A stretch of 63,184 bases of DNA, counting the filler, from Kipferlia bialata (lineage: Eukaryota), in assembly GCA_003568945.1 (NCBI GenBank). It is 3 parts of 3 records of this genome, joined end to end, with 100 filler letters (N's around TTAATTAATTAA, not from the genome) between each part and the next. Parts side by side here need not be neighbours in the genome. Positions count along the whole stretch, not along the records: positions 1 to 21,408 come from BDIP01000123.1; positions 21,509 to 51,810 come from BDIP01000124.1; positions 51,911 to 63,184 come from BDIP01000141.1. One strand, given 5' to 3'. Under the pieces are notes generated by a model. It searched no databases, was not told the DNA's origin, and was given only the letters and a program-made list of their open reading frames with translations. Position 1 is the stretch's first letter. Every line of letters begins with the position of its first letter. Positions 6,895 through 63,184 of the stretch are shown piece by piece. The position numbers were made by a program, and so were the translations under genes.

Positions 6895-7259
6895 GCATAT
6901 GCGTCCCAGCACCAGCTCATCTTCCACGAGGTGTCGGCCAAGACAGGCCGGAAGGTATCAGTATCAGTGTATATATATTGTACCAGACTATATATGTATA
7001 TATTGATACTGATACTACGTATCCATATACGTATCCAGGTGTCGGCAAAGACAGGCCGGAAGGTACGTCACGTGTCCCATCAACACTCCCCCCCCTCCCA
7101 CCCCTCTCCCTCCTTCTCTCCCCCCAGGTCACTGAGGTGTTCCGTTCCATTGCAGCCTATGTTCCCCACTCGGCAGATGCCGACCCAGACGATGACCTTC
7201 TAGGTCCCATCACTGGGTCCCACGAGCTGGACCAGGGCAACGGGGGGTGTCCCTGCTAG
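6895..7259 (+). CDS. Rab-family small GTPase, C-terminal exons
   Basis: AYASQHQLIFHEVSAKTGRK|VTEVFRSIAAYVP...NGGCPC*: G5 box (E.SAK), F..IA helix and C-terminal CxC prenylation motif. N-terminal part lies in the gap. Confidence 0.85.
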
Positions 7260-7785
7260 GGGTGGGTGTCAGTCTGTTGACGCCTGAGACAGCTGGGTCT
7301 GGAGGTCTGGATACGTATAGTGTATAGTGCATAGGCATGTGACACAGGGTTGTGACTAATGGTCTTCCCCCCACTGTTGCTACGTGTCGCCTATCCTCGT
7401 CCTCCACTCTCTGTTGCCTCTAGGTGTCCCCTTCCGCGAGTCACATGATGTGATATCTCAGGGAGGGTGTGTATTCTGTGTTTGAGTGTAGTCTTTCGTA
7501 TTTACCAACGGTTCTAGAATGAATTAGATGAGATCTGTTGTTATAGGGAGCCAGTAACACTTGTACTGTTTTGTTTGTTGTTCTCTGCTCGTAGCATCAT
7601 TGGGAATATGATACCAATATATCATATATATATCATATGGCTCCAGTGAATCAGAAGGGCAGCCCTTGAAGCTGTCACAGTAACAGTGTTTTTGGTTAGA
7701 AACACAGAAAGGGTTTAGAGTAATACCAGTGTTGGTTTTGAGGTAAGCGTCTTCACTCACAGGTGTTGTATCACACCAGAGGACC

Positions 7786-9940
7786 ATGGAGAATTACCAA
7801 GGTTGTATCCATTATAGTACTGGAGCGACGGCTCCAGCAAGTGTAGCAAATTACTGTTTCCATTGATTGAAGATTCTTGTATTGCAGATAGTTCATGAAA
7901 TTCATACTTCACTCATACCTCCTCACACTCACATTAGTGCTGGACACCATTGGCCGTGGTTCCTTTGGGACTGTGACCCGGGTCAAGAATCGCCAGGTTT
8001 GAGAGTTGGTGCCAATATTTGAAGTGTCCTAATTGCTGAGTCAAGCTCTGCATCAATAAGGCTCTGTCCTCCTGGGTCATCCTGGTATCCCTGTTCCAAT
8101 CCCATATTCACAGTCAGGATGGAAAGATCTACGCATGCAAGGATATCAGCTACGGCCGGATGTCTGAGAAGGAGAAGGAGCTTCTGGTGTCTGAGGTGGG
8201 TGTGGCAGTCTGTGTCAGTGCCATATGTGCATGGGTGTGTGTGTCCATGCTCCACTTTGTGCCCCCTGACCCTCACCCCAGGTCAATCTGCTGAGGGAGA
8301 TGGACCATGAGTACATTGTCAAGTACAAGGACAGGTGGGTGTCATCTATATAGGAGTGTATTATCAGTAGTATTGTCGGGTCTTGCTCCTTGTTGCTCAC
8401 CCCAGAATCCTGGACAAGAACAGACAGCGCATCTACATCTACATGGAGTACTGCTCTGGCGGAGACCTTGCCTCCTACATCAAGAGGCATAAGAGTCAGG
8501 TATATCTATGCCCTGGACTGAGTCCTGTCCGCTCACTCTCTTCTCACCAAGTGAGACCACTCTTCCATCGTAACATATTCCATATCATGTCTTGTGAGTA
8601 CGTTGTGTCTACCCCTGCTGTATTTTGTGGCTGTCGTGACTCCTGCTGACCCAGCGTAACTACGTGTCTGAGAACACTGTGTGGGCTGTCTTCATCCAGA
8701 TGCTCAAGGCCCTGCACTACTGCCACACCCACAGACCCAAGATGATCCTGCACAGAGACATCAAGCCAGGTACACTCCATACGCCCACCTCTCTAGGTAT
8801 ATAGCGCACCCCCCCTCCCCCCCTTATGCCTAGGCAACATCATGATGACGTCCACCTCTGCCGTCAAGCTGGGTGACTTCGGACTGGCCAGGACCCTCGG
8901 GGACTACTCCCTGGCCAGGACCAATGTGGGCACCCCCCTCTACATGTCCCCAGAGCAGATCCAGAAGCGGTATGTCCTCTGGTACCACTCCCCCCCTCCC
9001 CCGTATGTCCTCTGATTCCCAGCCCCTACAACGACAAGTGTGACATCTGGGCCCTGGGGTGCCTGCTCTTTGAGCTTGCCTCTCTCGTGCCCCCCTTCGA
9101 GGCCACATCGGTGGTGGGTATTTGTGTCAGTATCTATGCATCAGTATCTATCCATCAGTATCTATGCATCGGTATCTGTGAATGAGGGCACACATGTGTA
9201 TATGGGTATGTGTTCTGTGTGGTCTCTCACTGCCAGGCCGGCCTCAACCTCAAGATCAAGGCCGGGAAGTTCAACCCCCTGCCTGCCCAGTACTCGGCTG
9301 AACTCAGTGGCATCGTCAGGTGGGGTTGGATACCCAGCTACACTAGTATGTGTGTGTGTGGACTGACTCTCCAGGAGTATGTTGAGCCACGACCCCAAGA
9401 GCCGCCCCTCCACCACCGACCTTGTCAAGCTACCCACAGTCGCACAGCGGATGAGGAACGCGGTGCTGAGGGGGAAGGCACCCATGGACCATGCTGCCCA
9501 GAACAGAGAGAGGGCTAGGCCCAGGGTCAGAGAGCCAGCACCGGCACAGCTGGCACCCAGGTACTTGGATTGATGTATAGTAGAGACCCTCAGCAGAGGA
9601 TTGGCTGTCTGTGTGTTAGTATGTGTCTGTCTGCAAGTGTGTCCCCCCCTCTCCTCACCCCAGGGCCCCCACCAAGCCCCAGTCCAGACCCACCAGCGCT
9701 GTGGCTGTGGACCCCGCCAAGGAGAGGGAGAGGCTCAATGCCCTTGCCACCCAGCTGAGGCGGAGGGAGGCAGACGTCGAGAGGAGGTGGGTAGATGTGT
9801 GTATATGTATGTATGAATATATGTGTGTGTGTCTCTCTGACCCCAGGGAGTATGAGGTCAAGAGGAGGGAGGACGCTCTGCGCAGGAAGGAGGACGAGCT
9901 GAACATGCGTGAGAGGAGGGAGAGGATGAGGGCTATGTAG
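7786..9940 (+). CDS. NIMA-related Ser/Thr kinase (NEK2-like) with C-terminal coiled coil, multi-exon
   Basis: Spliced: [18 protein letters not shown]..|[41 protein letters not shown]..|[11 protein letters not shown]..|[35 protein letters not shown]..|[12 protein letters not shown]. All catalytic motifs intact. Ends ERMRAM*. Confidence 0.95.
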
Positions 9941-9953
9941 GGGGTCTACATCA

Positions 9954-9989
<36 letters not shown>

Positions 9990-10297
9990 GTCGTTGGCAG
10001 TTGTATTTGTATCATACAGAGTGAAGGATAGAGAGAGATCTCTATGCCCCCCCTAGAGTGGACTAGGATAGGGGGCTGTGAGGTTTAGTGGGTTTGTATC
10101 CGCGGTTTGGCGGATGAGAGTACCTAGTGGTTGTTTCAATATCCAATAGACTAGGACAGGAGACTGGGACAAGTATAGTCTATTGGGTAGGACTCCGTTG
10201 AGTAATAGTCACTATCTATCCACTTACGGCTACAGACTAACGCTGGAAGGTCTCACTGTCTCCGAGCACCCTGTGGTAGACCTAGTGGGGGCAGGTG

Positions 10298-12184
10298 TCA
10301 CACAGACAAGTGGCCACAGGACTGAGGCAAGGAACCATCAATGACACAACCTGCGGCATCATCACACAGGAGTACACAGGCGTTGGGAACCAATGATATC
10401 ACCCATTGACAGTAGGTAGATAGGCCTGCAGCAAGTGCCTCCCCTGCCGAGCTCACCCACTCCCACACTACCATACACCCACTCATGCACTACCATACAC
10501 CTACTGTGTACACACCGCCACTCATCACTGCTGCCATACTGACTGTGGCCAAGGGATCTGTAGAAGGGCTCGGGAGACAGGCGCTGTGTTGCCAAACTAA
10601 TGACTAGACACATGACTAGCCTACACAGACCAGGCACCCCACATCCTCTCCTAGCGTCTTGGGTATCAGTTTAAGGTAGTGGCAGCGCAAAGACTGGTCT
10701 AGCTGTCATCCTGTCTCATCTGGCTAATACAACCCAGACATGGACCCCATCCCCATGTGAGAGGTGACACAGTCACGCATGATGAGAGCACCACGTACTC
10801 TCACTGGCCCTACTCCCTACTCCATGGGTATGCCTGGTATGGGCACTGTATCCTGCCCCTCACACACCACAGACACGGTGGACAGGGAGGTGGACACAGT
10901 GTGTATGTGTGTCTGGGTGAGGGCATTGTTGCCAGTCAGGGTGAGTGTGGCGAGGTGTGCCATGCACCCATGACACATGACAGAGACAGAGGCAGGGGTC
11001 AGACCACACCCAGTCAGGTCGAGGTGCTCAAGGCGACGCAGACGCCTGGGGAGGGTCAGAAGGAGTGACATACATTTTTGTATACATATGCATATGTGAC
11101 AAGCATACCTGAGTAGGGGCAGCAGTGCCTCCAGTCCCTCTGTGCCTAGGTGGTTGTGGCTCAGAGACAGGGTGCGCACGTGATACAATACAGGCCACAG
11201 GGGGGGTAGGAGGCTCAGCTGGGCCGCGCCAAGGCATGGAGGTGAGAATGGTGAAGTATGAGGAAAGGTCATCCCCTGTATCATTCAGGGGATTGCATAC
11301 CTAACCGAGAGAGGTCCAGGTGCCTACACGACGACCAATCGTTGGAGGGGGCGGGTCCTGGGGCCTTAGGGTTCCCAGAACCGGCCTCTGAGGTTGGAGG
11401 GTCTGGAGATAACCAACATATACACTATGTGTATACTTATGTGTATTACACATGTTACATGAACAGAGCACATACTGCAGTAGCTAGTGATATCAGAGTG
11501 ACCTCACCCTTGGGAACAGGTATGACCTTGGCGGCACTCAGCTTGGCCCTGGATGCCATGAAGATGCCCTGGTTCCTGAGTATGCAGGACAGCATGGGGA
11601 GGGCAATGAGGTAGGTCTGGGGGTCAGGATGGGGAGGGGGGGGGGGGGCCTGTAGTTCCTCACTTCCTCATCACGTCTCTGACTAACCACATACCTCCCC
11701 CTCCTTGGTCTGTCTGGGGTCTGATCTGTCTATCTTACTGGATGTCAGGAGAGTCAACAGGGAGAATGACAGACACTCCCATATGTATATCGAAAGGGGC
11801 ATACCTGGCGTAGTTGTGAAGGTCAAACAGAAGGGAGTGGGCAGACTTGAACCCACTCAGAACCACCAGGTTCTCCTGCTGGTCCTGGGGTGTGAGGGAT
11901 AGGAGAGTGTGAAGTGTGTGGTTGCGGCAGAGGTAGCGAGTAAAGTGGAACAAATGAGAACGCCCCAAGTCTCAGCCACACAAAGCACTCCGTACCTCAA
12001 ACCTGTCAATCAGGGCCTGTTTGGCCTCCGACAGCTTCAGGGCCGGTGCCTTCTTCTCCGGCTTCCTCTCCTGCTCCCACGCACACACCTGGGTGCCGCT
12101 GGAGGGAGCCGAGGGAGGCATGTGGGACTTCTCCAGACTAGCCCAGAGGGCCCTCAACACAGGCTGGGGGCTGGTTCTATCCAT
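10298..12184 (-). CDS. Leucine-rich repeat (RNI-like) protein, multi-exon; 3' end approximate
   Basis: Starts MDRTSPQPVLRALW. Contains LRR units VRTLSLSHNHLGTEGLEALL, LEHLDLTGCGLTPASV and LATLTLTGNNAL. Confidence 0.7.
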
Positions 12185-12361
12185 GGATCCTTATAGGATG
12201 CTATTCGAAGAGAGTATCGATAGACCAGACTCACAAAGAGAGACGAATAAGTCAAGCGTTTTGTCTCATTGTTGGTTGACCGAATCGTCTTCCTCTCTCT
12301 TCTATAGCAAGTCAACACCTTCTATCAGTTCTGACTCCCGTATTACTCCCTGATAGACGAT

Positions 12362-21408: not shown

Positions 21409-21508
21409 NNNNNNNNNNNNNNNNNNNNNNNNNNNNNNNNNNNNNNNNNNNNTTAATTAATTAANNNNNNNNNNNNNNNNNNNNNNNNNNNNNNNNNNNN
21501 NNNNNNNN
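21409..21508. other. Artificial contig join: N run with TTAATTAATTAA linker (21453-21464)
   Basis: All-frame stop linker centred in a 100-nt spacer; identical layout at 51811-51910. Confidence 0.95.
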
Positions 21509-21642
21509 CCCCCCCCAGTGGATTTCCCTCATTTTGCCTATCTATCTATGTTCCTCTAACCCCACATATTGACTGAGTTCCTCTCTCCCTCCCTCTCCCC
21601 CCCGCCCCCCTTACATATGTGTTAGTATCCCTCACCCCCCAG

Positions 21643-24600
21643 ATGGACTGAGTTCCTGTCAGAGTGTTGGGCACAGTATCCACTGCTGTCATTCCTCCCA
21701 GTGCAGAAGGTATACCATATACAATATATTTGTATACTTACTATCATATTCATTCTATTATATTATTATGTATTATTCATTTTGTATATATGGTGTATCC
21801 ACTCCTGTCATTCCTCCCAGTGCAGAAGGTACACATATACTCTATACAATATTATATATACTATCATATACATTGTATTACATTATATATATATTGTGTA
21901 TCCACTCCTGTCTTTCCTGCCACTGCAGAAGGTATATATATATATATATATATATATGTTATCTAGCACTGCATTACTCAGAACACGTGTCATCCCCCCC
22001 CCCCCCCCTCCCTCTATTACCGGTCCCGATTTGTCTACGTATCTCACCAATTTCACTTCAGGCCTTTGCCCTTGGTCTCTGTTTGTCTGACCCAGCTGCA
22101 GAGGCAGACACAGTACTGCCCCTACTCAGATCAATCATGGAGATCCCACTCTCCCTCAAAGGTACATACATACAAATACATATGTACCATTTGGTATTTA
22201 TGATACCTTTCAATCCGCCCGGGGTACATATTGTCAGCATTGTGGTTAGTTTCATTGTGGTTAGAGTATTATTTGGTGATAGTAGAACTGTATTTGTCGT
22301 ATCTTAACGTACCAGGTTCTGCTAAGAGTGCGTGCTCCTTCATCCCCCTAGGGTTCGACACCTCTGACCCCCCCTCCCTACTATCCACATCCCCACAGGT
22401 TGGAGAGGGTGAGAGACAGGGAGAGAGTCTGTGTGTTGTGAGAGAGACAGTCAGGAGGGTGAGACTGACATCTATTGGCTATGAGGAGAGGCACGAGAGC
22501 GAGGGAGAGGCAGAGGTGGATAGCCTGTCTCTGCTGCACCAGATTGGACCATTCACGTGGATGTACCAGAGGTGGGTGGATGTATAATCATTGTCACATC
22601 ATATTTTGACCTCTTGAACTGATATTAATACGAGACATTAAATTGTTCACCTTCATCAATCGTATGTATGTTTGTTTGCTAGACTTCTGCCTTACAGTTA
22701 GGGTTGGAGAATGGCTCCAGCGTTCCTTTGGCACTGCCAAGTCTGCCAAGAAGATGAGAACGGCCCTGTCTCTGCCTGGAAAGGCATATCTCCCACTGGT
22801 ACGTGTATTGTCTCTCTCCATATATATATTTATATATATATATATGTGTGTATCTCATCCCGGCTCAGGACTCCCCAGTTCATGAACTCCTGGCCTCTCC
22901 CTCTCTCTCTCTCTCTCTATTCATCTAAGCTTCTGTCTAACCCCAGCTCAAGACTGCCCAGTTCATGAAGAAGCCCCTGGCCACATACAGGAGTGAGGGA
23001 CAACCCCAGTTCTTCCTGAGGTACATATATGTATATCATATACTATATATTTATGTATATATATATTATAGTGTCATATAAATATATATATATATATATA
23101 TATGGGTTCCGTCTTACTCCCCCTCACCCTCCAGGCTGCCTGACCTGAAGGGTTCCTCCCCTCGTTCTGGGAATGCCTCTAGACCAGTATACTCCTCACA
23201 GCAACAGCTGGTCAGTGCACTGGTACTATTGCTAGGTATGTGACATGTGTATTAGAGAGTTGGTATACATTCATACTTCTAATCCCAGGCTACCGCCCCC
23301 TGGACTGTCAGCTCATATTTACTATATGTGAACATGTCAATAATCATTATGTATACACATATACTCACAACCACCCACACATACATATATATCTTCTATT
23401 TCCATACTAATCCCAGGCTACCGCCCCCTGGACTGTCAGATTATGTACTGCTCTGAGTCGACAGGGGTGACAGAGCTCAGGAGGATGGTGCATGCCAGTA
23501 GGTATGGGTCACATGTGTACTGACCCCCCCCCCCACCTCACTCATATATACTGATTTCACACAGACAATATGACTTGTGTTTGAAGTGCCTCTCATTCTA
23601 GGAACTCCTGTCCACCCCAATGATGGATCAGTATTATTGTATATGAATATGTATTTGAGTATACTCTCTCACCCTAGGAACTCCTGCCGTCGGATGGTCC
23701 TGATCAAGCCTGACCTCCTCCCTGTCAGACTGGTCAGAGAGTTGGAGGTGCTGCAGAGAGGCCTCAAGGACACACCACCGCCACAGGCCGCTATACCAGG
23801 TACTGTGTATGTTTTGGGTCATATGTCTCTGTGTTATCTTTCCTCTTTAACCGTTAGCCCCCTCCCCCCCTAAACCTCACAGAAACTTGTTTACATTGTA
23901 TCATTCTCTCTCTCTCTTTCTCTATGTCAGTTTCATTATCTCACCCTCAGCCACAATCCCCCCCAAGTTCAAGGACCTTCTGACCGGCATGGACAGTACC
24001 TGTGGCAAGCTGTGCTACATATGCGGGGCAGACAGGTGAGTTTTGGTCTCTTCTTCTAGTAACGACTGAATCCTAAGACTCATTATCTCCATTCTGATCC
24101 CTAGAACAGACTAGATTTGTGTATAAATATCATCATTGCACTGGGGTTGATATATTTAACTAGTACTGACCCCCAGGACTGACCAGATGGGAGGTGTGGA
24201 AGAGTCACTCCCCAGGCCCACAGTGTTCACTGAGAACGAGAAGGGTGAGAAGAACATACTTATAACTCTGCAGTACACAGTGATTAGCCTTTGGCGTACC
24301 AGTGTTGTGTGCACATTATTCTAACCTCTAGATGTCAACCTGCGCCACTTTGACAAGAGCAGAGAGGTCTTCATCCAGAGTGTCTCTGTCCATACTGTTC
24401 TGGGTGACCCCCAGTGCGGAAAGACACACTTCATCAGGTACCCACTACAATACATATCCATTGTATGATTACACTCTACTTCTCTTACATTTCTAGGCAC
24501 TTAAGGTTTTAATTGAGTCTTACCTCTAGGCAGCATATCCAGCAGAAGGTGGCCGGCTCCCGCCCTACCTCAGCTGCCCCCTCCTGTCCGGGCACACCCA

Positions 24601-43405: not shown

Positions 43406-43443
<38 letters not shown>

Positions 43444-44319: not shown

Positions 44320-44947
44320 AGAGAGGACAAAAACTCAGAATAGAATTCAAATTTGATGAGACAGTGGTACTGGTAGGAAGAGGCACCATTCCCTCCTGGT
44401 CTCTCTCGTACTGGTCAACAACTCCCGCTAAAGCTACCTGTTGGGGGTCCATTGCAGATAACTGGTCAGAAAGTGGAAAGCTGCAGCTAAAAACAGTTTC
44501 TACTGTGAATAGACAGTGGAATTGAACATGGGCCTTGTTCACTTTCACTACTGTATCAAATGACTGCAGAATTTGATTTTAGCTGCAGACAACACTGCAA
44601 AACTCTGGACTGACCCAACACAAAAACTGGACTGGGCTCAATTAAATCTTTGGTGCAGATTTTTATTCTTTTGTTCAATTCTTAATGTCGACGCCAGTAT
44701 AAACTTGCTCTGGTTCAAAATGGAAAGTCAACCCCTAACTCATATTTGATCAAAAAACAAGGAGACAAAATCCTCATGAATTGAAGGTCATCCTCTCATA
44801 GTGACTCTGTAACACAGTGGGCTTCCGTTACTGCGCGTGTATCCTACTACCCCGCTGCATCTACTAGTGTATACATAGTTCCTGTAGTTCCTCTAGTTCC
44901 TCTAGTATCCCCATCCCCCCTGGTTTCCCCCGTACCCCACCTGTGCC

Positions 44948-46006
44948 ATGGACACCCCCTCCATGTCTGAGCTCTCAATGGGAGCCGCAGTATCCTCCGA
45001 GGTAGCCCAGAAGCGCCTCAACGAGCTGTTCCTGGCCTTCCTGTCCTCCCCAGAGATGCTGGGAAGGGTGATGACTGTGGTCGAGGATATCAAGGTATGA
45101 CTATGTGTGTATGTATACCTATAACTGGTGCATGTGGTTGTGTTTCTGATGGATACCAGTATATACATAGATATATATCGATACGCACCTGTGCTTGTGT
45201 ATATGGTACGGTATTGCAAGGTATATGTTGTCAACCACACTGGTACCGTTGTGTTGACCATATACTCTTTGCCCTCCTATCACTAGCTATGAACATATTC
45301 CTTATCCATGTGCATATGACTAACACCCCAGGCTGGCCGTGAGGTGACTGGCTCCCCTGTGCGTGCCGACTCTGCCCTCCGCAGCCCCACCCCCTCCACC
45401 CCACCCACGCCCCTCTCCCCGTCGGGCTCTGTCATGTCCCCCTCCTCCCTCTGCTCCTCCCCCTCCCTGTCCCCCACCATACCATCACCTACTAGGGGGC
45501 TCGAGACATTCGTGTCACTGTCCCCATCACCCGTGCTCGACAGAGAGGTATGTGTTATTATCGTGCTGCTGCACTATGTGTATATGTACCTCCCTAATGC
45601 ATTGGTACTTTACTACTAGCAATTGTGTTATACTACTATGTGGCTTGTATATGTTGTACTTTCCGCATACCCCCCCCCCCCCCCTTTCCCCCCTCACTGG
45701 TAATTTAGTGTGTCTACATATTGTATCTTCCCTCACGTACACATAGTCTCTCAAGGCAGTATTATATTCCTCACCGTAGGTCCAGCACCCCCCCATCTCT
45801 CTGGCTCTCTGTCTCTCTCAATATATATGTATGGATTATAGAGACCTCTAACTCAGGCCAAGCACGTCCCCTCCTCCACCCCCTCTCTCTCCTCCTCCTT
45901 CAGAGAGAGAGAGAGCCAGGGCGAGACAGCCGAGGGCAAGATCCCCAACCTCATGTCCCTCATCGTCAAGCAGGTATTCCTCTCCCTCTCTCTCTCTCTC
46001 TCTCTC

Positions 46007-46051
<45 letters not shown>

Positions 46052-47635
46052 GTCTCTCCATTGTATATACAAAGTGTGCCATGTCGTTCCCCTTGCTGCA
46101 GATTGGAGAAGAAGCTACTCTCTCTCTATCTCTCTCTCCTTCCTATCATGTAGTCCTATTTGTGTTACCAAGTATATATAGATATATCCATACCTGACCT
46201 CCAGCCCGTTGAGCAGCACAGGCTGGAGAAGAGGCTGCTATCGGTGGTACAGGCAGCATTCCCAGAAGGTACAGATGCACCATATATACAGAGTATTATA
46301 TGTGGTTGAATGAAAATGTATATATATATCTTGTATATATATTGAGTTAGCTGTGGTTCAGGCAGCATTCCCAGAAGGTATGCAAATACCGAGTCCCCCC
46401 CCCCACCACCACACCCACACACTATCCCCGTTCCGTTGAGTGTGTACTGGAGTACTCACCCCCTAGGCCTCACCTTCCACTCCCGTCTCCCCTGGCCCCT
46501 TTATCTCTCTGGGTTTGACCACTCGGGACTCGAGGACAACATCGCACAGTCAGGTATGATACACTTCAGCTACATTCCCTCCCTCTCTCTCTCTCTCTCC
46601 CCCCCCCCCCCCCCCCCCCCCCTCCCCTCCCCTTCCTTCACACAGACAATGAGCACAGTATGAGAGAGAGAGGTCTCTTCCTCCATCACTCTCTCTTATT
46701 CCCTCTCTCCCCCCCCCCTCCAATCCCTCCCCCACCCCAGGCCCCCACCTGGTGGATGTGTGGTCCAGGCATATCTTCAGTGGCGGGTGTTCTCTGGACA
46801 CCTTCACAGGGGACACCCTCAACCTGACCCACCTCTATGTCTCAGACATGTTCCTCCTCATGAGTGTGCTCAGAAGGCTGCCCACCGTCAAGCACTTGAT
46901 GCTCGACATGCCCCGTGTCCACAGGTGCGTACTCTCTCTCTCTCTCTCTCTCTCCCTCTCTCTGTCTCTCTCTCTCGCCAAAGTACCCCACCTCCCTTTC
47001 ACTTCCTCTCTCTCTCACACACACCCAACCTGTCCAACCTTCTAGGAAGCGCTTCTTCCGTGGCAACGTGCAGTTTAGCACCCTGCACATCTACAACTCA
47101 GCCGAGGCAGTGGTGCCTACTGCCGCTGTCCCTATCTCCAGTGCCCCAGGGGACAAGTCGTCTCTCTCCACCTCTCTCCTACCACCTATCCGGGAGGAGT
47201 CTGTCGATGCCGCCGAGCCATCCACCCCAAGGTACATACTCGATATATAGTGTGGAGCGTCTCTCCTATCTGTATTCTTCATTACTATATTATTGTATAG
47301 TATGTATCCCTGACCTCCAGGTCCCTCGACCCCGATCACTCTTTCACGCACCACTCCCCTGCCCGCCCCACTGCCCTCACCCACCTTGACACCGACAAGG
47401 CTCAGGCCGGCACAGGCAGTGGCGTCATAGACTCACTGCTCAAGGTGGGTACTACTTCCTCGATTGCAATATTGTTACCCCCCATCACCCCCTAGGTACT
47501 CAAGCTGCGTCTGAAGGAGGACCCCGTCCGCAGGGCCAAGGCCGCCTCCGAGGCTGCCCCTCTCCCCACCCCCACCCTCATTCCTGTAGTGGTGCAGTCT
47601 GACACACTGTCGCTGTTCGAGGGAGGTGAGGGTAT

Positions 47636-47673
<38 letters not shown>

Positions 47674-50600
47674 TGTCTTTCCCTACCCCACTCACCCTCC
47701 AGCTGCGACTGCAGTCCCTATCCGGCCCATCATGCATCTGACACACCCGGCTGGCCTAGTTGGTACGTAACTGTGAGACGATGTGTGTATATGTGCAAGT
47801 ATACATATGCAATTTCCCCCCCCCCCCTCACCCTGCCAGGCATCCACACTGCACAGGTGCTGATGGGCATACCCTTCGAGAGGGTGGACCCGGCACAGCC
47901 CCTGGACCTTCTGGTCACCGTGCCCAAGGTATGCATAGTGCACTCATGCATGTTCTCACTACACACATAGTATAGTATAGTATGATGTAACCTGATCACT
48001 AACACTCCAGGGCGGTGCAGTTCGGCAGGAGTTCACCACGTCCCTCAACGTGAAACAGATCCTGCGAGATGCCGGCATCCACCTCTGCCCCGAGGATCTG
48101 TCTAGGGCCACCCCAGTTGCCAAGGGGAGGTCAGACCCCATTGAGGTTGAGTTCACTAGGGGTAAGGCAGGAGAGAGCATAGTTCCTGTTCCTGATGAGC
48201 TGCCAGGGGAGTGCCACGATGACCTGACCTCTGTACTGTCTGTCTACTTATACAACAACGGGCACCACCACCATGGGCACCAGTCTCTGCACCCCTTCTC
48301 TGTGGTGTCTCTATCTCAGGATGGACATGCAGAGGGGTCTGAGGTGGGGACAGAGACTGCGGCCACGGCCCCTAGCATAGTCACCGTCAACACACAGTGC
48401 TACTACAGCACTCGGGCAGACTCGGATACTGGCAGTAGGGATAGGGAGTTAGATACTGAGGGGTCCCAGTCTGAGTACCTGTCTGTACAAGGGGAGCAAC
48501 GGGCAGAGGGTGTGGAGCATGACCCTGCCCTACCTACCCTGGACACCCTGTCCCCTGTGACCTCCACCACAGACACCCCCGAGGCACACCCCATACCCAC
48601 CCTCCCCTCCTACCTCTCCCTCCACTCCCACTCCCCCACTGCGTCAGAGGGTGCTGAGGTGGGGTCCACCCTCATATCAGAGGGGTCGGAGAGTGGGACA
48701 GAGGTGGTGTGGGAGGAGCAGGAGGACGAAGAGAGAGAGCAAGAGGAGGGGGAGATGGATCCTGTGAGGGAGGCCGACCCCTCTGGTGGACTGTACACCC
48801 ACGGGGGCAGACCGGGGTTCCTGGCCTCGGAGATGCCCCAGGACAACCAGGTGGGGGGTCTTATATGTAACATACTATGTACCATACATACTCTCATTAT
48901 TGGTGTTGTATGTGTGATGATTCCCTGCCTCACCCCCAGGCCCCCACCTACTCCGTGGTGGATGATGACCTGGGTGACGACAGGGGTGCCTCAGTTGTGA
49001 CCCAGGAGACAGAGGGCATACAGCTGAGTGATGCCGACACACAGCCACTAGATAGCATGGGGCAGAGGATATGGCACCTCTATGCAGGTGGGGTAATCAA
49101 TCAATTCTTGACATTCTTTCTATTTCAAATTGTGTGTCTGACATCCAGCTATGCGTGAGAGTCTCAGCTACACCACTGCCACCGATACCCTCAAGGGGTC
49201 GGACACAGACCTGGCGGCAGAGTGCGTGGTGCAGGTGGGGACTAGTATATGGATACTCTGAGTCACAATAGTCTATATTAATGAACTAATGACTATCACT
49301 CTGTTCTTTCCATTTCATTCGCCTCCAACCGTCCCACCCCCAGTCCATCATCAAGGCCCTTCCGGCTGCCGCACTGCAGCGGAGGCGTGCCCTGCTCACC
49401 CAGGGTGGATACAGGTAGAGTAGCACATATGTATATCCTGACTATACCGATATATTAGCTGCCGATACTGACTGTCAGAGAGATGGTGTCTGCCCTCATC
49501 CCCTCTGTGCAGACCCTGGATGGAGAGGCACTGACACCGGAGGGGAGGGCTGCGGCCAGGAGGTCGCTCATGAATAGGTATAAACACGTAGTAGAAAGCA
49601 GTGCCCACTACTCACACACTCACCCTCCAGTGGCGCCTTCCCCCACCCTGCCTTCAGACGCACCCTGGGTGTGACAGGGGGTGACAGGCTGAGCAGTGCC
49701 CTGTGGGAGTGCGGGGTCACAGACCACACCCATGGCAGACAGAGCAGACATGCTGTGCGGGTACAGTGTCTGAGCAGGGTGGAGACCCCGAGGCTATTCA
49801 GCCACACCCAGGTGTGCACTCCACACTCTGACACAAAGGGTGCAGAGGGGAAGGAGGGGAGGGAGGGAGAGGGAGACGGCAAGGGGGGCAAGGACAAGAA
49901 GGGGGAGAAGGGTAGGAAGGGGGATAAGGACAAGTCCAAGGGGGGGAAGCACCCGCCCTCCCCCAACCGCAGCAGAGACACCCAGAGTCAGAGCAGCTAT
50001 GCACCCATGACATCTAGGTCTAGTAGGGCTCCCTTCTTCCCAGAGTCAGACGCGTCCCTCCCTCTGCCACCCCACTCAGTCGCAGAGAGGGAGAGAGAGA
50101 AGGACGGGCAGGGTGTCGAGTCAGACGCCGTCATGTCCCCACCCAAGCAGCCAAGCGGATTGCTAGGAGACCCCTTGCTGAGACTGAGGGACCACTTTGG
50201 ATACAGCTCCTGCTTTGACATGGACCCCGAGAGTGGGTACATATGCATAGGCACCCGGAGTGGCAACATGTACCTGGGGGATGGGTCTGTGCCCCCCCTG
50301 GACTGGTGCCATGGACTGAGTGTGGATAGATCAGCACTGAGTAAGGAGACACAGCACACGCTGAAGAGACCCATTGTGTCCCCCTTCCACCCCGACCACA
50401 TAGTGCCCGTGCCCCACACCTGGACAGGTACCAGGGCCCCAGTGACTGCAGTCACGTGGATGAGGGGTGGGTGCGTGGCAGGGGGTACAGCAGATGGAAA
50501 GGTGTGCCTGGTCAGCAGGGAGCAGATGGTGTATGCCGGTCTGCATGCCTCCCCCCACTCCCGCCCCTCTAGGCCCTTTGTCAGCCGGTATGTGGGGAGC

Positions 50601-51389
50601 AGGTACACCCAGGTCCCCGGTGACACTGCTGTGTCTGCGGCTCTGTCCCACACCCTCGACCTCTCTCTTGCCCTCCTGCCCAAGAGTGGGGGGCACAGAC
50701 ACAGGGTACCGGTATCCTCCCTGGCCGGTCTGGGGTCGGGTCTGTTAGGTGTGTCCCTCTCCGGCCATGCCAGGGTCCCTCTGATCGACACTGTCTCCAT
50801 GAGGGTCACTGGGGAGGTGTCTGTGGGTGATGGTGTGTGGGGTGTGTCCCACATGTCACCCCTCATGCCACCCTCCTCGGACAGGGCTGCCCCTATGCTG
50901 TTGGCAGCTGTCCACAGGGACATGCACCTCTACGACACCCGATCATCCCTCACAAGGCCAGCCCTCTCTGTCCACACCCCTAGACCTGTGACATCCATAG
51001 CCGCCCACCCCACAGGTGCTGCAGTGGCTGTAGGTGCCCTGGATGGCATGGTGGCTGTGTATGACATCAGGGCAGGGACCAAGCTGTACCAGAAGTGCCA
51101 CAGGTCGGTAGGGGACATCCGCAACGAGACGCAGGTTGGGTTTGTGGGTGATAGGGGCAGGAGACTGGCTGTGGGTGGTACCAGAGACAGCTACCTCAGC
51201 ATCTACGACACCCACACCTCCCGCATCTACCTGGAGACAGAGGTGTCCTACGCAGTGGCCCAGGGCGAGACCGGGGGTGTGTGCGGCATCAGACAGATAG
51301 GCAGGCAGGGGGTGTCCTACCACATACCCCTGCTGGTGCAGAACTCAGTCACGGCGGATGTCATCACGTGTGACATATCCTCTCAGTGA
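44948..51389 (+). CDS. Large multi-exon protein with Ser/Pro-rich N-terminus and C-terminal WD40 repeats
   Basis: Starts MDTPSMSELS..KRLNELFLAFLSSPE. Last exon (ORF 49671-51389) has WD-like blades ICIGTRSGNMYL, VTAVTW..VAGGTADGKVCL, MHLYDTR and VTSIAAHPTGAAVAVGALDGMVAVYDIR. Confidence 0.75.
45980..46047. repeat. (CT)n microsatellite, intronic; similar tracts at ~9953-9990, 55795-55835 and 61327-61382
   Basis: Direct inspection. Confidence 0.95.
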
Positions 51390-51810: not shown

Positions 51811-51910
51811 NNNNNNNNNNNNNNNNNNNNNNNNNNNNNNNNNNNNNNNNNNNNTTAATTAATTAANNNNNNNNNNNNNNNNNNNNNNNNNNNNNNNNNN
51901 NNNNNNNNNN
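51811..51910. other. Artificial contig join: N run with TTAATTAATTAA linker
   Basis: Same linker as 21453-21464. Confidence 0.95.
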
Positions 51911-53168
51911 GAGCAGCTGCACAGTGGCCTTGGCCTCCATGAAGACTCCATGCTCCTCATCTATGATGTCAGTGATCACAAGCTGGATGGAGTGAGCGGC
52001 ACACGCGATACGAAGGATGTGACGGTACCCAAGCCTCTCCCTGAGGATCTTCACTGCCCCCACGCCATTACTGGCGTTGTCACACACCACACTACCTTAC
52101 GTTAGCGGAGATCAGCACCAATATAGGCAACATATATATGCATTGGTATATTCCTATTGTCTAGGAGAACACGACACTATACATACCAACCATGACACCC
52201 TCATTGTGGAGCTCCTCAATCTTCTTCTTTAAGTACTCGGCAAGGTACTCCTTGCTGTTCTTCACGTTCTCTCCCACTGTAGCAAGATAGTGGCTCTTGC
52301 CACCGAAGATGATACACAGACTGTTCTTCTTGACCTTCTTCAAGCCCTACAGGTTAGAGGCAGGTATAATACGAGAAGGTAAAATATGATACTATGCGTA
52401 TATACAACACATCACTCACCACCGTGTCCTTCCACCCATCTGTCGCGAAGTTGACACACTCATTGTAAGCAGAGCGAGCAAGCTCTTTTGTCTCGAGCTT
52501 TGCGACCTTGATCACCATGTCCCTGACCGCTGATCCGCCTTAAGATTAGTCTATGTGTACGCGTCGTGGCTATTTGACATAGCAAGCATACATATATACA
52601 TACCTGGCATGTCCTCTTCCTTGGGGGTGTTGCGCACAGCATTGAGCATTCTCTGGAACGCAGGCTTGTTGAAGACATTGATGCTAAGCTAAAATTAGGG
52701 ATCAACAGAGTGTGAGTGTATATGGAAGGTATACTGAGTCATACGTACCAGACCCTCCGCATAGCAATGCGCAACGGCACGCTCAAGGTCGGAAACACAG
52801 AAGTTCTCTATCCTATGGTACTGTCTCCTAACCCGACTTGGAAGGCTAGACCTCCTCTTCTTGCGCTGCTTAGAAGCCCTGGGCTTAGACACACTCTCGA
52901 ATGGGTCCGCAGGCTGTATTGCCAGCTGAGAGTCACCGGCAGCACAACCAGATCCTTCTATCAGCTGACTCCCACTGCAAGAGGGCACTGGATGGAGAGT
53001 GCCCAGCCCAGAGGAGGCGAGTGGAGACGCCAGAAGACCAGATGCCTGCAGCAGGCAAGGCAGGATGCCACCGCTGAGCGTATCCGCCAAGAAGCCAACA
53101 TCAGGGAGGAGGACAGGGTTGGTGTCTGAGAGGAGTATTGTGGTAGCGCAGGGAGCTAGGCCTTTCAT
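51911..53168 (-). mobile_element. hAT-superfamily transposase gene with 4 spliceosomal introns (3' part lost at gap)
   Basis: Spliced frame: LERAVAHCYAEGL|LSINVFNKPAFQRML..|..VNFATDGWKDTV|..EYLAEYLKKKIEEL..|SVVCDNASN..LRIACAAHSIQLVITDII. Contains the first two catalytic Asp and the CxxH motif of hAT transposases. Confidence 0.85.
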
Positions 53169-55676: not shown

Positions 55677-55711
<35 letters not shown>

Positions 55712-55792: not shown

Positions 55793-55837
<45 letters not shown>

Positions 55838-56403
55838 GTGAAGGTATGGGACGATATTGAAGTGCAATGGATTGGGTTGATGCACCTGGATATGAGGGCT
55901 GAGTCAGTACAACAGGTTGAGAGAGAGACAAAGAGAGAGATAGCACCTTATGGCTAATGTATATGTGAAACAAGCACTGATGAGACTCAAAGCGACTGCA
56001 ATCAATCAAGTGATTGATGTGGTTTATCATCAGTATCGTTTAGGACAGTCTTGGCTATGCATGCACCACGCAGAAACACAGAGATATATGCTCATTCTAT
56101 GTCATTGATGCAACCACACCACCACAATTGACTCACTTCGCTATAGCTAGGGTATATCAATCAAACGACATTTGAGATATGATATCTCACACATAGATGT
56201 AGTACATATAAGCAGCCAGAGCACGAAACACTTGCTCTAACTTGAATGACATATACCAATATTCAGTGCTATCAATGTGTGGTAGACAAACCTCAGATTG
56301 TTTGGGGTGTATTGGTGAAGGATAGAGAGTTCTTTCGATGATTGTGATATTAGTATCAGCATAGTACGTCTTTTTTTTTTTTTCAGGATTTCGGGAGGTT
56401 CAT

Positions 56404-56485
56404 GACACTATGGCCGAGTTGGTTAAGGCGGTTGACTCGAAATCAACTTCACTTGTGAGCGTGGGTTCGAATCCCACTGGTGTCG
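56404..56485 (+). tRNA. tRNA-Ser (anticodon CGA)
   Basis: Acceptor GACACTA/TGGTGTC+G, D arm TGGCCGAGTTGGTTAAGGC, anticodon arm GTTGA-CTCGAAA-TCAAC, long variable arm, T arm GTGGG-TTCGAAT-CCCAC. Confidence 0.97.
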
Positions 56486-56750
56486 AGTTTCTTAAACTCA
56501 AGTATATGATTCGAATCTCATATGTGTCATGTCCTTCTGTCTATTTCGGTTCAACTGGTGTGTCGCTCAGCGAGAAACCTTTTCCTCCTGACCGGTAAAG
56601 ACCACTCCACAAATCTTGCCATTGGCCAGGATATTTATATTGAAATGTCTCTCTGTAAACATGAGCCAACAGCGAACAGAGAGATGCAGTTGATAACCAG
56701 CCAGGGCTATCCTGTTTAGCCTTGACCAGCCTTGACCAGCCTTGACTAGA

Positions 56751-58670
56751 CTAGACTGGCACCTCTGAGAGTGGCTTGCTATCCTCTGCGGCATCTGCCT
56801 CCTGCTCAGCGGCCCTCTTGCGGATCTCAGCCTCAATCTAGGGGTCAGAGGCATGGTTCTGTGAGATACTACAATTATAATACCAGCAGTAGTATATGTC
56901 CGTACCATGTGTCTCTCATGTGGCACCTTGGCCAGTGCAGTCACAATGACACCTGGGGTTACGGGTATAATACAAATTGTCTATTCATAGTATATGACGT
57001 AACACATGTGTTGTTTGCAATATATATGAAGAATTAATGGACAAACACAAAGAGACGGTGTGAGCCCGAGATAGAGAGAGATATATAGTTACCTATGACT
57101 GGCCAGGATAGTGCTATGAACCATGAGGCATGGGGGTTCCAGTCATACAGGTATCCCTGGCATTAAGGAGAGTAATGACATGACGAATTTCAATTTCTAT
57201 TATAGAGCCAGTGTATATACACCACACATACCAGAGCGAGGGAGAATATAGACCGGCCAAGGGAGTTGCCGATCTGGAAGAGACCGAGCATCATGCCTGG
57301 AGTAAGGAAGCTTATACGACACATCTTGGGTATATATACATAGAGAAAGATACACAGCAACAGGTGAGAATATGAAGAACATCTCACTCTCAATAATAAT
57401 CCCTATACATATTCGTATACATACCTCTATCTTCTGGGGATGTCCATTCTGAGCACAGTGCAATGATGTAAACATCGTACTCTCTCTCTCTCTCTATATA
57501 TATACATATATATTCATATATGCATATACATACACTAACCTCTATCTTCTGGTGATGACCATTCTGAGCACAGTGGTATGAAGTGTACATCACACACACA
57601 CACACACTCTCTCTATATATATATTCATATTTGTATATCCATACTAACCTCTATCTTCAGGTGACGACCACTCAGAGCACAGTGCTATGAAGTTGGGGTT
57701 GGCCAGTCCATCAGACACACCGTTGAGGAAACACTCAAACTGAGAGTGAGAGACCTTGACTTGTATATTATATTGTCAACATAATTGTCTCTTGTCACAG
57801 AGCATTGTACGTACCGTGTAGACATAGAAGTTGAACATGCCNNNNNNNNNNNNNNNGCATTGTACGTACCGTGTAGACATAGAAGTTGAACATGCCGTCC
57901 TTGTCCAGTATTTAGGATAGCTAATACCACTAATAGTCACAGGTTTAGCTCTTGTCACAGAGTATGAAACGTACCGTGTAGACATAGAAGTTGAACATGC
58001 CGTCCTTGTCCAGAGCACACATGGAGAGGGGGATGATGGCAAGGGCCTGGCCCATGTAGATGGTCTGTCGTAAGATAGAGAGAGAGAGAGATTGGAATGC
58101 TCTGAGTAAATAATGGTGTATTGAAATACTGGGCACAATACTCACCATCTTTTCTCCGACCCTCTTGCTAATAGGTCCCACCACTATAGAGCCAAGGAGA
58201 CCGGCAGAAGTGGCCATGAGCCTATTGAAGGAATAGAGGGTCTAGAGGGTAAGAGAGAGAGAGAGAGAGACGAAATGAGTAGAGGGTCTAGAGGGTAAGA
58301 GAGAACAAAATAGACTGACAACGTTTTCAATCTAGTAAAAGACCAGCAGGGTATATGAGGAGTAGATATATATATATATATATATAGGCTGAGTCACTCA
58401 CCCCAAAGTTGTCTGGGCCTTAAGGGTAACAAGAGAGAGAAAGCCAATATGTTATATATAGATGTATGGATACAGTATATAATGGATACAGAAAGTGAGA
58501 CGGTGTATCACCCACCCCAAAGTTGTCTGGGTCAGAGAGAGAGAGAGAACAGAGAAGAGAAAAAAATCGAACAGCAGAGGTATGACCAGAAGCGCAGACT
58601 GAGGAAGTGTATAGTGTCTAGAGGGCAAGGAACAGAGATAGCTGAGACATCCTCACCCAAGAGAGAGAGA

Positions 58671-58705
<35 letters not shown>

Positions 58706-61343
58706 CTGAGACATCCTCACCCCAAAGTTGTCTGGGTCCACATCGCAGTTGTTGTAGACAATGCCACCTGGATGTCAGAATAGACACTAGAAATATATAT
58801 TACTAAGGATCTAATAGCAAGAAAATGTATTCAACTATTTAAAGACCATGTTGTTGTTGTTGTAGGTAATGCCACCTGGATTGTTAGATTATACACATGT
58901 ATTGAACTATACATGGGTATGTATGTTTAGATAGAACCTATTACACGTTTACCTGACGTGGCCGAGAATGATGAATGGGCTCCGAGTGTGAGTGTGAATC
59001 CCACGAATATCAGGAGGAGGTTTGGGTTGTGGGTGATGAGGGTGAAGGTCTTCTTGAAGCCAGACTCCTTGGGTGCCCTGGGGGTGAGAAACGGTGTAGA
59101 AAGAGAATATATATATATATATATACATAGACTATAAGAGGAACGTAGCTCACAGGAGAGAGAATAGTGGAATAAAGAAGTGCTGGAAGACTCACAAAGC
59201 ACTCACGTTTTGACAGACAGGTTCAGTGCCTTGGTCTCAGTTCTGGCAATGCGGCTGGAATAAGCGGGGAGGGGGAGAGAAGAATTAGAGGGATGACAGC
59301 GATGACAGTCGAGTCATGGAAAACAGAGACTACATATATATATACATACTACATATACTACATACTAGATATATTTAGATATACTCACATGGGTGCAGAC
59401 TCCCTTAGGAAGAACAGAGACACCATGCCCCCTGAGAAGGAGAGTAAGGAGCCCAGGATCATGAGCTCCTTCCACTGCCACCCTGGGGTCAGTATTAGTG
59501 TCACTAGGTCATGGGTTCAATTCCCACCAGAGACATATTCCTAAGCAATTGACGTACATGTGCTGATACTGTGCAGCAGGATGTTGAGGCAGATACCCAG
59601 GAAGGAGCCCGTCCACATGGAGCCATTCAGATAGGCGAGAGCCTAATCGTGAGAGTGCGAGGGCGTGGGTTCAATTCCCCACGTGGCAGAGCGAGACTAG
59701 TATATGTATATATACCTGGCTCCTCTGTCTGACTGGGGTGATGTCTGCCACGATGGTGTTGCCAAGGGGGGTGTACTGAGAGTGAGATATATATATCTAT
59801 ACATGAAAATATATAGTGGGAATAGAGAGAGAGAGGATTAGAGAGGTATTGTTGCCAAGGGGAGTGTATTGAGGGTGAATGGGAGAGAGAGAGAGAGAGA
59901 GAGAAAGAGACAGCAGAACTTGAAGGCATTGCAAAATGGAGTGCATTGAGAAGGGTATTTGGTGGCAGGGATTCCAGAGAGCGATTGTTTCACGTACAAT
60001 AGCACCCAGGCCGGACCAGGCCCTGAAGAAGAGAATGCCTGGGGGTCAATAATGATAAACTGCGATATAGTGAATTAGAATTAGAACATAGATAGTATCA
60101 CATCTGTCGCTCAAGTAGATTAGGTAACAAACAAGTATAAAACCCATATACATACCCTTGTAAGATGTCGAGAATGCAAACCCTAGCAGACACACTGCAT
60201 AGTTGAGGGATATGATGACCATGGAGGGCTTGCGTCCAATACGGTCACTGATACTGTTGTGAGATAGAGAGAGAAAGAGAGAGAGGGAGCGGGCGACCAG
60301 AACTAGAGGGGACAGTACAACAGAAAGCAGTCATGTCCACAAATCCTTCTGCGTCCGCGAAGGAAGCATACGTACCGGTGCCACGTTGGGGAGGCAAAGA
60401 GCTGACTGGGGGTTAAGGGTGTAGAGGGAGAGGCAAAATGAAACAGAAACAAAACATAGAGAAGGAAAGTATGTGTGAGTGATAGAGAGAGAGAGAGAGG
60501 CACGTACACTATGTTGAATATGGCCAGGGCGTTGGTGAGGGCAGACATTGTGTTGGCAGGGCCCAGGAGCTCACTTACGCGGGCTATAGTTAGGACTGTA
60601 GAAGGAGAGAGAGAGCGAGAGAGAGAGAAATATGACATGGTGTTGGCAGGGCCCAGGAGCTCACTGACACGCGCTAGAATAAGGGGTGTAGAGGGGGGGG
60701 GGGAGAGAGAGAGAGAGAGAAATATGACATGGTGTTGGCTGGGCCCAGGAGCTCACTCACACGGGCTGGAGATCAGTGGTAGAGAGGTAGAGAGAGAGGC
60801 AGAAACTCTCTGCCAGAGGAAGGGAGAGTGTAAAATCTATGTAGTTCATGTATATGGGTAGCATTCATATATACCTGGCAGGTTGACTGACACTAATGTG
60901 ACACCGATCAGTCCCCCATACATATATACACATATATACATATAAAGATAGATCTCCGATACCATAAGTCCTATATTGGCTTACATTCTGAGTAACTGCA
61001 GGGAGTATCTACATACAGTACCTGGCAGGTTGACTGATACAAGAGTAACACCGATCAGTCCCAGCATGATGTTGGTGTAGATGGCCCAGGCACCCGTGTC
61101 AAACCTGGAGTTAGATTAGTATCTATATAAGATATACTTAGCATATATAATCATTCCCATTCACAAGCCAAGTGGAAGGAAATCACGACAATAGAGAAAC
61201 AGCCTCGATGTATAGGGTGATATACTTACATTGTTGGCTCTGATAGCAGGTCATCGTTGATGTCCTTGCACCCTAGGGCACTGCCACCTATGGCTGTCAC
61301 AACCATGCGGAGCTCCCTAGGGGTAAGCAGAGAGAGAGAGAGA

Positions 61344-61385
<42 letters not shown>

Positions 61386-62194
61386 GAAGGACACTACCAC
61401 CTATGGCTGTCACAATTATGCGGAGCTCCCTTTGAGTGAGAGACATACATATCTTACAATATTGAGAGACATATGGTGTTGTTGGACGCATACAGTTCAT
61501 ATGGGAGAGATACGTACTCTGTTGACGCCTCAGTCTCATCTGTCTCTACGTGTGGGAGTTGGGGGTACTGACTGGACAGGTACTGCAGAGCGGCATATAC
61601 ATACTGGACACGGTGGGAGACATCGCCAGAGGGGTCATACTATGGATAAGGGAGAGAGAGAGAGAGAGAGGGAGAGAGAGAGGGGGGGGGAAGACATACT
61701 GGAAACGGTAAGAGACACCCCGAGAGGGGTCATACTAGGGGTATGTGGGACAGAGATATACTATGTCACACGTATATATCGAACAGAACAAGTATACCTC
61801 GAGGTCATCCACCTCCTGCATGTCCATGAAGGTAACAAAGTCAGACATGCCCCTTGGGGTAAGAGGGAGAGAGAGAACGAGAGAGAGAGAGAGTGAGGCA
61901 GGAGATAAGTCACTGATACAATAATATAGAGGATACCGATGGAAGTGGGGGAGGGGGAATTCAGATAGAAAGAGAGAGAGAGAGAGTAGTGGACTCACTC
62001 TGATACTGGCACAGTGTCATTCAAGTGGTGCACCAGCTGACAAAGGGCACTGGTCTCAAAGAGTCTGGAGCAGTCTGATGGGTGAGATACGCATCTATAC
62101 TATATCTATATAGAGAGAGGGAGAAGGAAGTAGAAGTTGAGGGCACTGTTCTCAAAGAGTCTTGGCGTGTTAGGGACAAGAATCCATCTCTCTA

Positions 62195-62235
<41 letters not shown>

Positions 62236-62842
62236 CGAGGGAGACACGGAGGAAGAGAGAGTACCTGAGTGCATAGGGGATGCATAGTCCAGCCTCAGGG
62301 CCTTAACCGCCATGAAAGTACTAAATATATAGTGTATATATGGTATAATGAATAAGTATATAGCATGTTCTATACCCGAGTGTTGGGGTGACGCATAGTC
62401 CAGCCTCACACCCTGGAGAGAGCTGGTGCTATGCAGGAAGGCAATGATATATCTGGAGTGAGTATAAGGAGGGACAATAGCAGAAGATGCATGGAGAAGT
62501 ATAGCCAGTGCCGTATAGTTCTGAATGACTCAGTATATGGGAAAATATAGTTCCACCTGCTCTCCTAGAGGATTGTGAGTCCCTCATATGAACCGAGAAT
62601 ACACTATCCATATACATGTGTATACATATACTCATCCCTTGGAATACATACAAAACTCATGTCCCACCTGCTCTCCTTGAGGAATGTGGGTCCCTAGTAG
62701 TATCCTAACCACACAATATATATATACTAGTATATATGTATATTTCCTTAAGTAGTCATATCAACACTCCAGTATATACTTCACTCCCACCTGCACTCCT
62801 TGAGGAATGTGAGTCCCTCTTTGGACAGGGTCAGCATGTGGC
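56751..62842 (-). CDS. Major facilitator superfamily transporter (TetA/DHA1-like) with long soluble N-terminal extension (5' end not resolved)
   Basis: Spliced motifs QLFASPTWHR|ISDRIGRKP (motif A), LFFRAWSGLG, YTPLGNTIVADITPVRQRSQ|ALAYLNGSMWTGSFLG and ALCSEWSSPEDR|G..LGLFQIGNSLGRSIFSL. Ends KPLSEVPV*, stop at 56751-56753. Confidence 0.85.
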
Positions 62843-63184
62843 TGGGGATTAGACAAAGATTGACAATATATACATATATATATAGAGAGAGAGCGAGAGA
62901 AAGGGAGAGAGAGAGAGAGAGTCCCTCCTTGGACACGGTCAGTATGTGGCTTCAGGGTCATACTTCTTTCGCACACATATGCATATATACTTGAGAGAGA
63001 GAGATACAGAGAGAGAGAGAGTCACGAGAATGATACGCACAAAGGGACATGACGAATGAGTATCCCAGCGACTGGAAACTAGGTAGGTAAAGGGAGGGGT
63101 GAGAGAGAGAGAGAGAGAGAGAGGAGATAGTGACAATAGGTGAGGTAGGGGGGGGGGGGGGGGGGCCACCCCCCTTTGAGGGAA

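Follow-up and report, generated by a model that had tools for sequence, protein, structure and literature searches.

Which process could place inside an intron a copy of the end of the adjoining exon, splice site included, and leave the two copies differing with an excess of silent changes? The question is raised by an intron-rich stretch of 63,184 nucleotides from Kipferlia bialata (the window), which consists of joined scaffolds with linker runs of N at 21409-21508 and 51811-51910. A preliminary description had reported such copies, here called echoes, in many of its introns and had offered three origins for them: capture from diverged alleles or paralogs by recombination, inclusion of both copies in mRNA, and stitching of haplotypes by the assembler. 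As set out below, an echo and its exon probably descend from different, once-working alleles, joined by imprecise recombination limited to exons.

Exon-end echoes in the introns of the window

Gene models were built by the Viterbi procedure with a self-trained script, and micro-exons that were echoes were taken out manually. The 14 models contain 214 introns; two models (2200-6371 and 10130-12230) are poor, and their introns are counted in the denominator and supply no retained echo. Support for the models comes from the deposited K. bialata protein P0001, which is contained letter for letter in the model of an MFS transporter gene, and from RNA contigs whose spans equal the sums of the model exons in both large genes (1629 = 1629 nt; 1078 = 1078 nt). 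One exon of the MFS gene agrees at 100% with a K. bialata protein. For the presence scan, each exon end was aligned locally to its own intron with a cut-off score of at least 13, which detected copies in 28 of the 214 introns (12 cases on the donor side, 18 on the acceptor side), as compared to 0.20 + 0.54 (= 0.74) expected from other introns. Further controls gave 1/428 on the reverse strand and 1/166 on the wrong side. Exon-end copies do occur within introns as first described, and their orientation is as claimed, donor echoes lying downstream and acceptor echoes upstream.

A finer scan returned 38 copies, two of which (45670 and 11638, both with replacement-only differences) were discarded as poly-C. 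The 36 retained echoes (17 donor, 19 acceptor; 16-45 nt) sit in 27 introns and fall into 29 families, seven of them with two copies, and in 33 of the 36 the echo ends at most 3 nt from the splice site. Short echoes under the cut-off at 21556, 23590 and 58288 stand outside the pooled counts. Spacers between copies measure 48-106 nt, apart from one of 187 nt and one of 28 nt at an N gap, and their median of 75.5 nt is near the ordinary-intron median of 80. Each echo belongs to a tandem unit, composed of an exon end and 50-100 nt of intron, which splicing removes from the main mRNA. The median length of echo introns is 198.5 nt versus 80.5 nt, and 27 of the 46 introns of at least 140 nt bear echoes; of the two consequences for introns suggested earlier, growth is thereby shown and intron gain is not. 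The echoes are clustered regionally, with 61 successive echo-free introns among the 99 of the large gene (0/20000 shuffles). The rows below, ordered by position, rest on the finer scan of exon ends against their own introns unless another basis is given; the main host genes are included.

7037-7062, plus: donor echo of a Rab-like gene, copy starting AG|GT; exon end 6929-6954
21643-44319, plus: large host gene, 4131 aa, 100 exons, RNA contig present
21795-21828 and 21898-21931, plus: two donor echoes, shared breakpoint; exon end 21676-21709
22864-22886, plus: decayed acceptor echo, two replacements; exon start 22947
23289-23316, plus: acceptor echo; exon start 23417
25137-25156, plus: donor echo, identical, flank unalignable; exon end 25037-25056
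38934-38953, plus: borderline decayed acceptor echo, score 12, whole intron skipped by RNA; exon start 39026
39941-39956, plus: acceptor echo, strong acceptor skipped by RNA contig; exon start 40050
41273-41300, plus: donor echo; exon end 41191-41218
41579-41709, plus: two acceptor echoes, one identical, one recoded (CTT/CTC, AGA/CGT); exon start 41790
42163-42198, plus: donor echo, two silent differences; exon end 42068-42103
42427-42442, plus: acceptor echo; exon start 42513
42657-42694, plus: old acceptor echo; exon start 42743
43207-43230, plus: acceptor echo, three silent differences, acceptor lost; exon start 43291
43785-43805, plus: acceptor echo, deletion inside; exon start 43884
44948-51389, plus: gene after the large host gene, with echoes at 46099 and 46348
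46099-46122, plus: acceptor echo of lower confidence, in gene 44948-51389
46348-46377, plus: donor echo; exon end 46239-46268
56751-63078, minus: MFS transporter host gene, 25 exons, containing P0001
57425-57584, minus: two donor echoes, four silent differences from the exon in common; exon end 57693-57649
57815-57908, minus: two donor echoes, identical, N gap in between; exon end 58013-57975
58270-58288, minus: short acceptor echo, offset 46, three silent differences, under the cut-off and unpooled; exon start 58241
58402-58533, minus: two donor echoes; exon end 58738-58721
58856-58875, minus: acceptor echo; exon start 58767
59850-59868, minus: acceptor echo; exon start 59775
60634-60765, minus: two acceptor echoes, same junction; exon start 60583
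60875-60915, minus: donor echo, four recoded codons, zero amino-acid change; exon end 61062-61022
61388-61429, minus: acceptor echo; exon start 61316
61694-61734, minus: decayed acceptor echo; exon start 61639
62140-62297, minus: acceptor echo (62162-62140) and donor echo (62297-62267) in a single intron
62557-62695, minus: two decayed donor echoes, one with a stop; exon end 62819-62791
62919-62949, minus: acceptor echo; exon start 62841

In the Rab-like gene (6929-7062), two short introns would also be possible, since the copy starts AG|GT; this echo lies outside the RNA-covered stretches. The recodings CTT/TTA and AGA/CGT mentioned earlier were recovered by the finer scan, as were decayed echoes, with two replacements at 22864 and a stop (AAG>TAG) at 62585.

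Silent differences, flanks and splice-site use

The statement that echo and exon differ almost only silently proved to be exaggerated: 52 of the 97 differences are in silent codons, and the 36 echoes comprise 11 with silent differences only, 11 mixed, seven with replacements only and seven identical to the exon. The differences are nevertheless unevenly spread over codon positions 1, 2 and 3 (24/346, 16/347 and 57/344). Four-fold degenerate sites differ in 45 of 177 cases and 0-fold sites in 37 of 663, a ratio of 0.22 (family bootstrap 0.12-0.38). Equal rates at all codon positions, the null proposed originally, are rejected (P 2e-11), but that null is itself too weak. After duplication in cis both copies gain silent changes and only the echo gains replacements, and the proper null ratio is therefore 0.5. 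This value is rejected as well, with P 1.6e-4 for the pooled data and 0.0014-0.0076 for one echo per family; a strict subset of 30 echoes gave a ratio of 0.21, and the silent excess has the same direction in both large genes and on both donor and acceptor sides. At exon start 60583, three versions of the sequence show only silent differences (GTA/GTG/GTC at one codon). Four simulations of cis duplication, subjected to the same detection step, reached 0.22 in 0/60 runs each (0/240), and a simulated allele model reached it in 37%. With later decay subtracted, the divergence at neutral sites accumulated while both copies worked would be about 0.19 (0.06-0.33).

Flank divergence far exceeds echo divergence. 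Intron flanks beside the copies are homologous but clearly diverged in 11 of 32 comparisons and resemble each other no better than random intron pairs in 21; the flanks of the identical echoes at 25137 and 39941 cannot be aligned. For cis copies as old as the 0-fold sites imply, flanks about 89% alike would be expected. At exon start 41790, the identical echo has a distant flank and the recoded echo a close one, exon and flank having been reshuffled at the splice site. In the two-copy families, sister spacers align end to end and share a common junction, which indicates that the arrays grew by unequal exchange. Microsatellites mark the far end of the echo in 18 of 35 cases, against a background of 27% (P 0.002). 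A young cis duplicate across a donor (58722/58658) has 24 identical bases including part of the intron, with its junction at a CT run. Short ordinary cis duplicates (9127-9177, 34575-34627, 58634-58722; offset 26-64) are 96-100% identical, unlike the echoes.

The region is present in two sequencing runs from one sample, a DNA run and a run taken as RNA; the latter is not on record as RNA and its identity was guessed, and its contigs join across GT..AG introns. These contigs show the main transcripts, rare or minor isoforms dropping out of them. They skip the echoes, the joints listed including 39855>40049, and the echo acceptor skipped within 39857-40049 outscores the real acceptor and has the better branch-point score. 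RNA pieces of the MFS gene match the exon letters with zero differences at 61022-61102, 61228-61315 and 61517-61639, where the echoes differ. GT is kept in 17 of 17 echo donors, with a mean donor score of 6.2 versus 5.7 for the real ones. Strong inner donors and acceptors being skipped for the outer ones, the data point to an exon-based choice of splice sites in K. bialata, despite its short introns. Two-step removal via an AG at the echo end was rejected as a candidate, such an AG being found in nine of 12 donor families versus 148 of 214 in the background (P 0.47).

The window itself may derive from the DNA run, which hence checks the assembly and not the biology. A single 18.7 kb DNA contig (depth 467) spans 37500-42125 without a difference, and in at least 13 pairs, echo and exon are connected by DNA contigs of depth 350-500, none of which has more than one other letter. 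Among the contigs listed for 37500-44400 at 80% likeness, no exon-matching one had other letters, and nothing accordingly points to a second haplotype or to a close paralog, bearing in mind that contigs drop rare variants. The N gap at 57842-57856 has the same 40 nt flanks on both sides; a DNA contig with eight substitutions over 57912-57944 likely corresponds to the missing second spacer, and the gap is thus probably undersized.

Origin of the echoes

Bridging of the echoes by DNA contigs and their skipping by RNA contigs remove two of the three origins proposed, stitching by the assembler and use of both copies in the main mRNA. In favour of stitching, the flanks of the N gap in one array (57842-57856) are duplicated, and the DNA run may be the source of the window, but separately assembled contigs of even depth span echo and exon together, and after this near-complete refutation we give the idea hardly any credence. 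Retention of echoes by selection, with entry into some mRNAs through alternative or recursive splicing, would agree with the conserved GT and the real-donor-like scores of echo donors and with the AG|GT at which the 7037 echo starts. Against it, the RNA contigs correspond to the one-copy model in both length and letters (minor use being invisible in contigs), and most echoes are without a partner splice site, some having stops or lost acceptors, so that we regard such use as very unlikely. Capture by recombination, the remaining proposal, stands as far as diverged alleles are concerned, which give the best fit. Paralogs present in the genome now do not fit and are a scarcely tenable source: the MFS gene does have paralogs with 47-65% identity, but 18 of 18 MFS echo peptides are nearer to their own exon than to any of eight family members, and the contigs listed at 80% likeness for 37500-44400 include no exon-matching one with other letters.

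Two further explanations, both improbable in our estimate, have to be weighed against descent from different alleles. Plain tandem duplication in cis within a clonal lineage could account for the data if silent sites in exons changed about four times faster than the stranded copy, with AT-rich flanks being fast too. A simulation with the exon rate multiplied by four reached the observed ratio in 38% of runs, and the young duplicate 58722/58658 demonstrates that birth in cis happens. However, the echo would then have to change slowly while the exon and flanks on either side of it changed fast, and the differences at 4-fold sites exhibit no transition excess (16 of 45) and little GC-to-AT polarity (15:12). 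Alternatively, the genome might once have been hybrid or doubled, with a second gene set, diverged from the first, giving rise to the echoes via imprecise conversion before it was lost. This would be expected to leave the same silent excess and diverged flanks, and it agrees with the one haplotype that remains and with the regional clustering of echoes (61 echo-free introns in a row among 99), but one exon start in three versions with silent differences alone, and a divergence that ranges from zero to high, suggest that the sources numbered more than two and that their dates were many. Three other candidates were rejected. Insertion with a long target-site duplication conflicts with the fall of similarity at the splice site and with the homology between spacers and flanking intron seen in 11 of 32 comparisons; an origin from cDNA conflicts with the continuation of the copies into intron sequence instead of the next exon; and repeated conversion in cis alone, by reasoning, erases both classes of differences and keeps the ratio at 0.5 or above.

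Descent of echo and exon from different working alleles is the reading we favour, the alleles most likely residing on different chromosomes, since there is one locus and one haplotype now and yet both copies long worked as exon ends. Several observations count against it. The fourfold exon rate fits the ratio equally well (38% vs 37%), and seven echoes differ by replacements alone; inclusion of the two discarded poly-C matches gives an NG86 ratio of 0.27. Conservative replacements are no commoner in echoes than at random (12 of 34, P 0.24). Comparisons between echoes likewise show more differences at 4-fold sites (6/33 vs 7/133, P 0.024), which supports the reading, but they were made against equal rates and not against 0.5. 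The silent bias derives from 97 differences in one window, the DNA run shows one haplotype, no second allele was seen, and no echo variant was matched to a living allele. Efficient exchange over just 16-45 nt of homology has to be assumed, and the near absence of spacers shorter than 48 nt is a feature without explanation.

The favoured reading might work as follows. Repair synthesis or a slipped fork would start in an exon, enter the intron, stall there, often at a microsatellite, and rejoin back in the exon by microhomology. If the template were the homolog, the copies would differ from birth, and if it were the sister they would start identical, two cases not separable here. Selection would keep only those units which leave the outermost donor or acceptor usable. 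Exchange between alleles would then be limited to exons, introns being too unlike, and exon and echo would thus trace to different working alleles with a neutral-site distance of about 0.19; second copies with the same junction could be added by unequal exchange. The stranded echo would finally decay at all positions, as a by-product which lengthens introns and for which no function is proposed. Metamonads have been described as lacking non-homologous end joining (NHEJ), and fornicates as devoid of Rad51A, with Dmc1 present as two paralogs (PMC8516963). Crossovers in Schizophyllum commune, a hypervariable fungus, occur preferentially in exons (PMC4209137). This repair-gene set and the exon bias of S. 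commune make the mechanism plausible, and do not test it.

Known systems, significance and neighbouring features

The ingredients of this reading are known singly, namely boundary-spanning repeats, intragenic duplication, break-repair footprints and recombination in hyperdiverse species. Internal gene duplication, reportedly treated by Gao and Lynch in 2009, belongs with the AGGT duplications compared below. General background on template switching is available (PMC4888836). In intron 7 of human F7, a 37-bp minisatellite straddles the exon-intron boundary; the real donor is followed by silent pseudo-donors, and splicing uses the site furthest upstream (PMC1557585). The echoes share with it a unit that spans the boundary and is repeated in the intron (33 of 36 ends within 3 nt, aligning sister spacers) and, in the main RNA contigs of two genes, the use of the outermost site with silent inner ones. 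F7 is, however, one locus with splice sites identical in sequence, whereas K. bialata has echoes in about 13% of introns and on both sides, with units of about 80-150 nt and silent recoding. The near-identical units of the F7 type are not found, flanks being diverged or unalignable and 4-fold sites 25% apart.

Tandem genomic duplication of AGGT as a source of new introns (PMC3443670) likewise involves short intragenic duplicates of exon sequence which splicing removes. That process makes a new intron; in K. bialata an existing intron grows, the old splice site is duplicated and the copies differ in an allele-like manner, and wherever covered the RNA skips the entire intron, so that new intron ends of the AGGT type are not seen; the one candidate for them (6929/7037) lies outside the stretches covered. 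In Daphnia pulex, new introns arise from staggered breaks (PMC4202315). Common to both species are an exon-terminal repeat in the intron as a break-repair footprint and passive intron lengthening, but the Daphnia repeats are 4-12 bp long and lie at the opposite intron end, while those of K. bialata are 16-45 nt long, lie at the same end and take in the splice site, with homology in the flank. Duplicated or mutually exclusive exons are not indicated, the exons being partial and absent from the main RNA contigs. Of the signs expected of recombination between alleles in a hyperdiverse species, two are present, namely silent differences in excess of the cis null and flanks whose divergence resembles that of neutral sites. 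S. commune, with a silent diversity of 0.13-0.20 and exchange confined to conserved exons (PMC4209137, PMC4576712), offers a hyperdiverse setting with exon-limited exchange of the kind suggested for K. bialata; the former was measured by crosses and populations, the latter rests on one genome. The parts of these two papers that were consulted report no intronic exon-end copies. Searches of a literature with few subscription papers listed no account of exon-end copies that are dense and show silent divergence of an allelic kind, and the terms 'duplicat', 'heterozyg' and 'ploid' do not occur in the main text of the K. bialata genome paper (PMC5874029).

If echoes are stranded alleles, they would be a trace of genetic exchange in a free-living protist whose group has shown no sex so far, and one assembly would suffice to test past exchange and to estimate neutral diversity. 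A value of about 0.19 (0.06-0.33), if true, is comparable to that of the most diverse eukaryotes known. With echoes in 27 of 46 long introns, their formation would be a main route of intron growth, and the approximately 125,000 introns given for the published genome (PMC5874029) make the echo test scalable to thousands of pairs. A wider picture is tentative, and we are rather more doubtful of it than of the descent from different alleles: K. bialata could be cryptically outcrossing and hyperdiverse (silent diversity about 0.2), its alleles alike only in exons, and repair without NHEJ and Rad51A could swap exons and regularly strand old exon ends, thousands of echoes forming both an archive of alleles and the main engine of intron lengthening. 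Echoes also mislead gene callers. The annotated protein P0004, from a different K. bialata scaffold, has GRIMYYKGDE repeated where the junction corresponds to 60583, and this repeat is likely an echo called as a micro-exon. Two metagenome scans, with the MFS alignment and with the last exon of gene 44948-51389, found no relative, which is evidence neither way.

The 4131-aa protein encoded at 21643-44319 contains three Walker A-like motifs and one Walker B-like motif. Its label 'RNF213-like' comes from the preliminary description and was confirmed by no database match; the long exon of the gene, the one exon queried, had no match in a database or Pfam search. The intron-bearing gene at 51911-53140 (minus strand), which may be hAT-transposase-like, shows a weak DUF659 match (E 7e-4, under the curated cut-off). 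Two adjacent introns of the MFS gene share a motif on the plus strand (59506-59525 and 59660-59679) that resembles a tRNA T-arm; the sole tRNA called by ARAGORN is tRNA-Ser(CGA) at 56403-56486. A multi-copy intergenic repeat occupies 44444-44700, where several diverged DNA contigs (depth 494-1500) and a contig of the RNA run were found.

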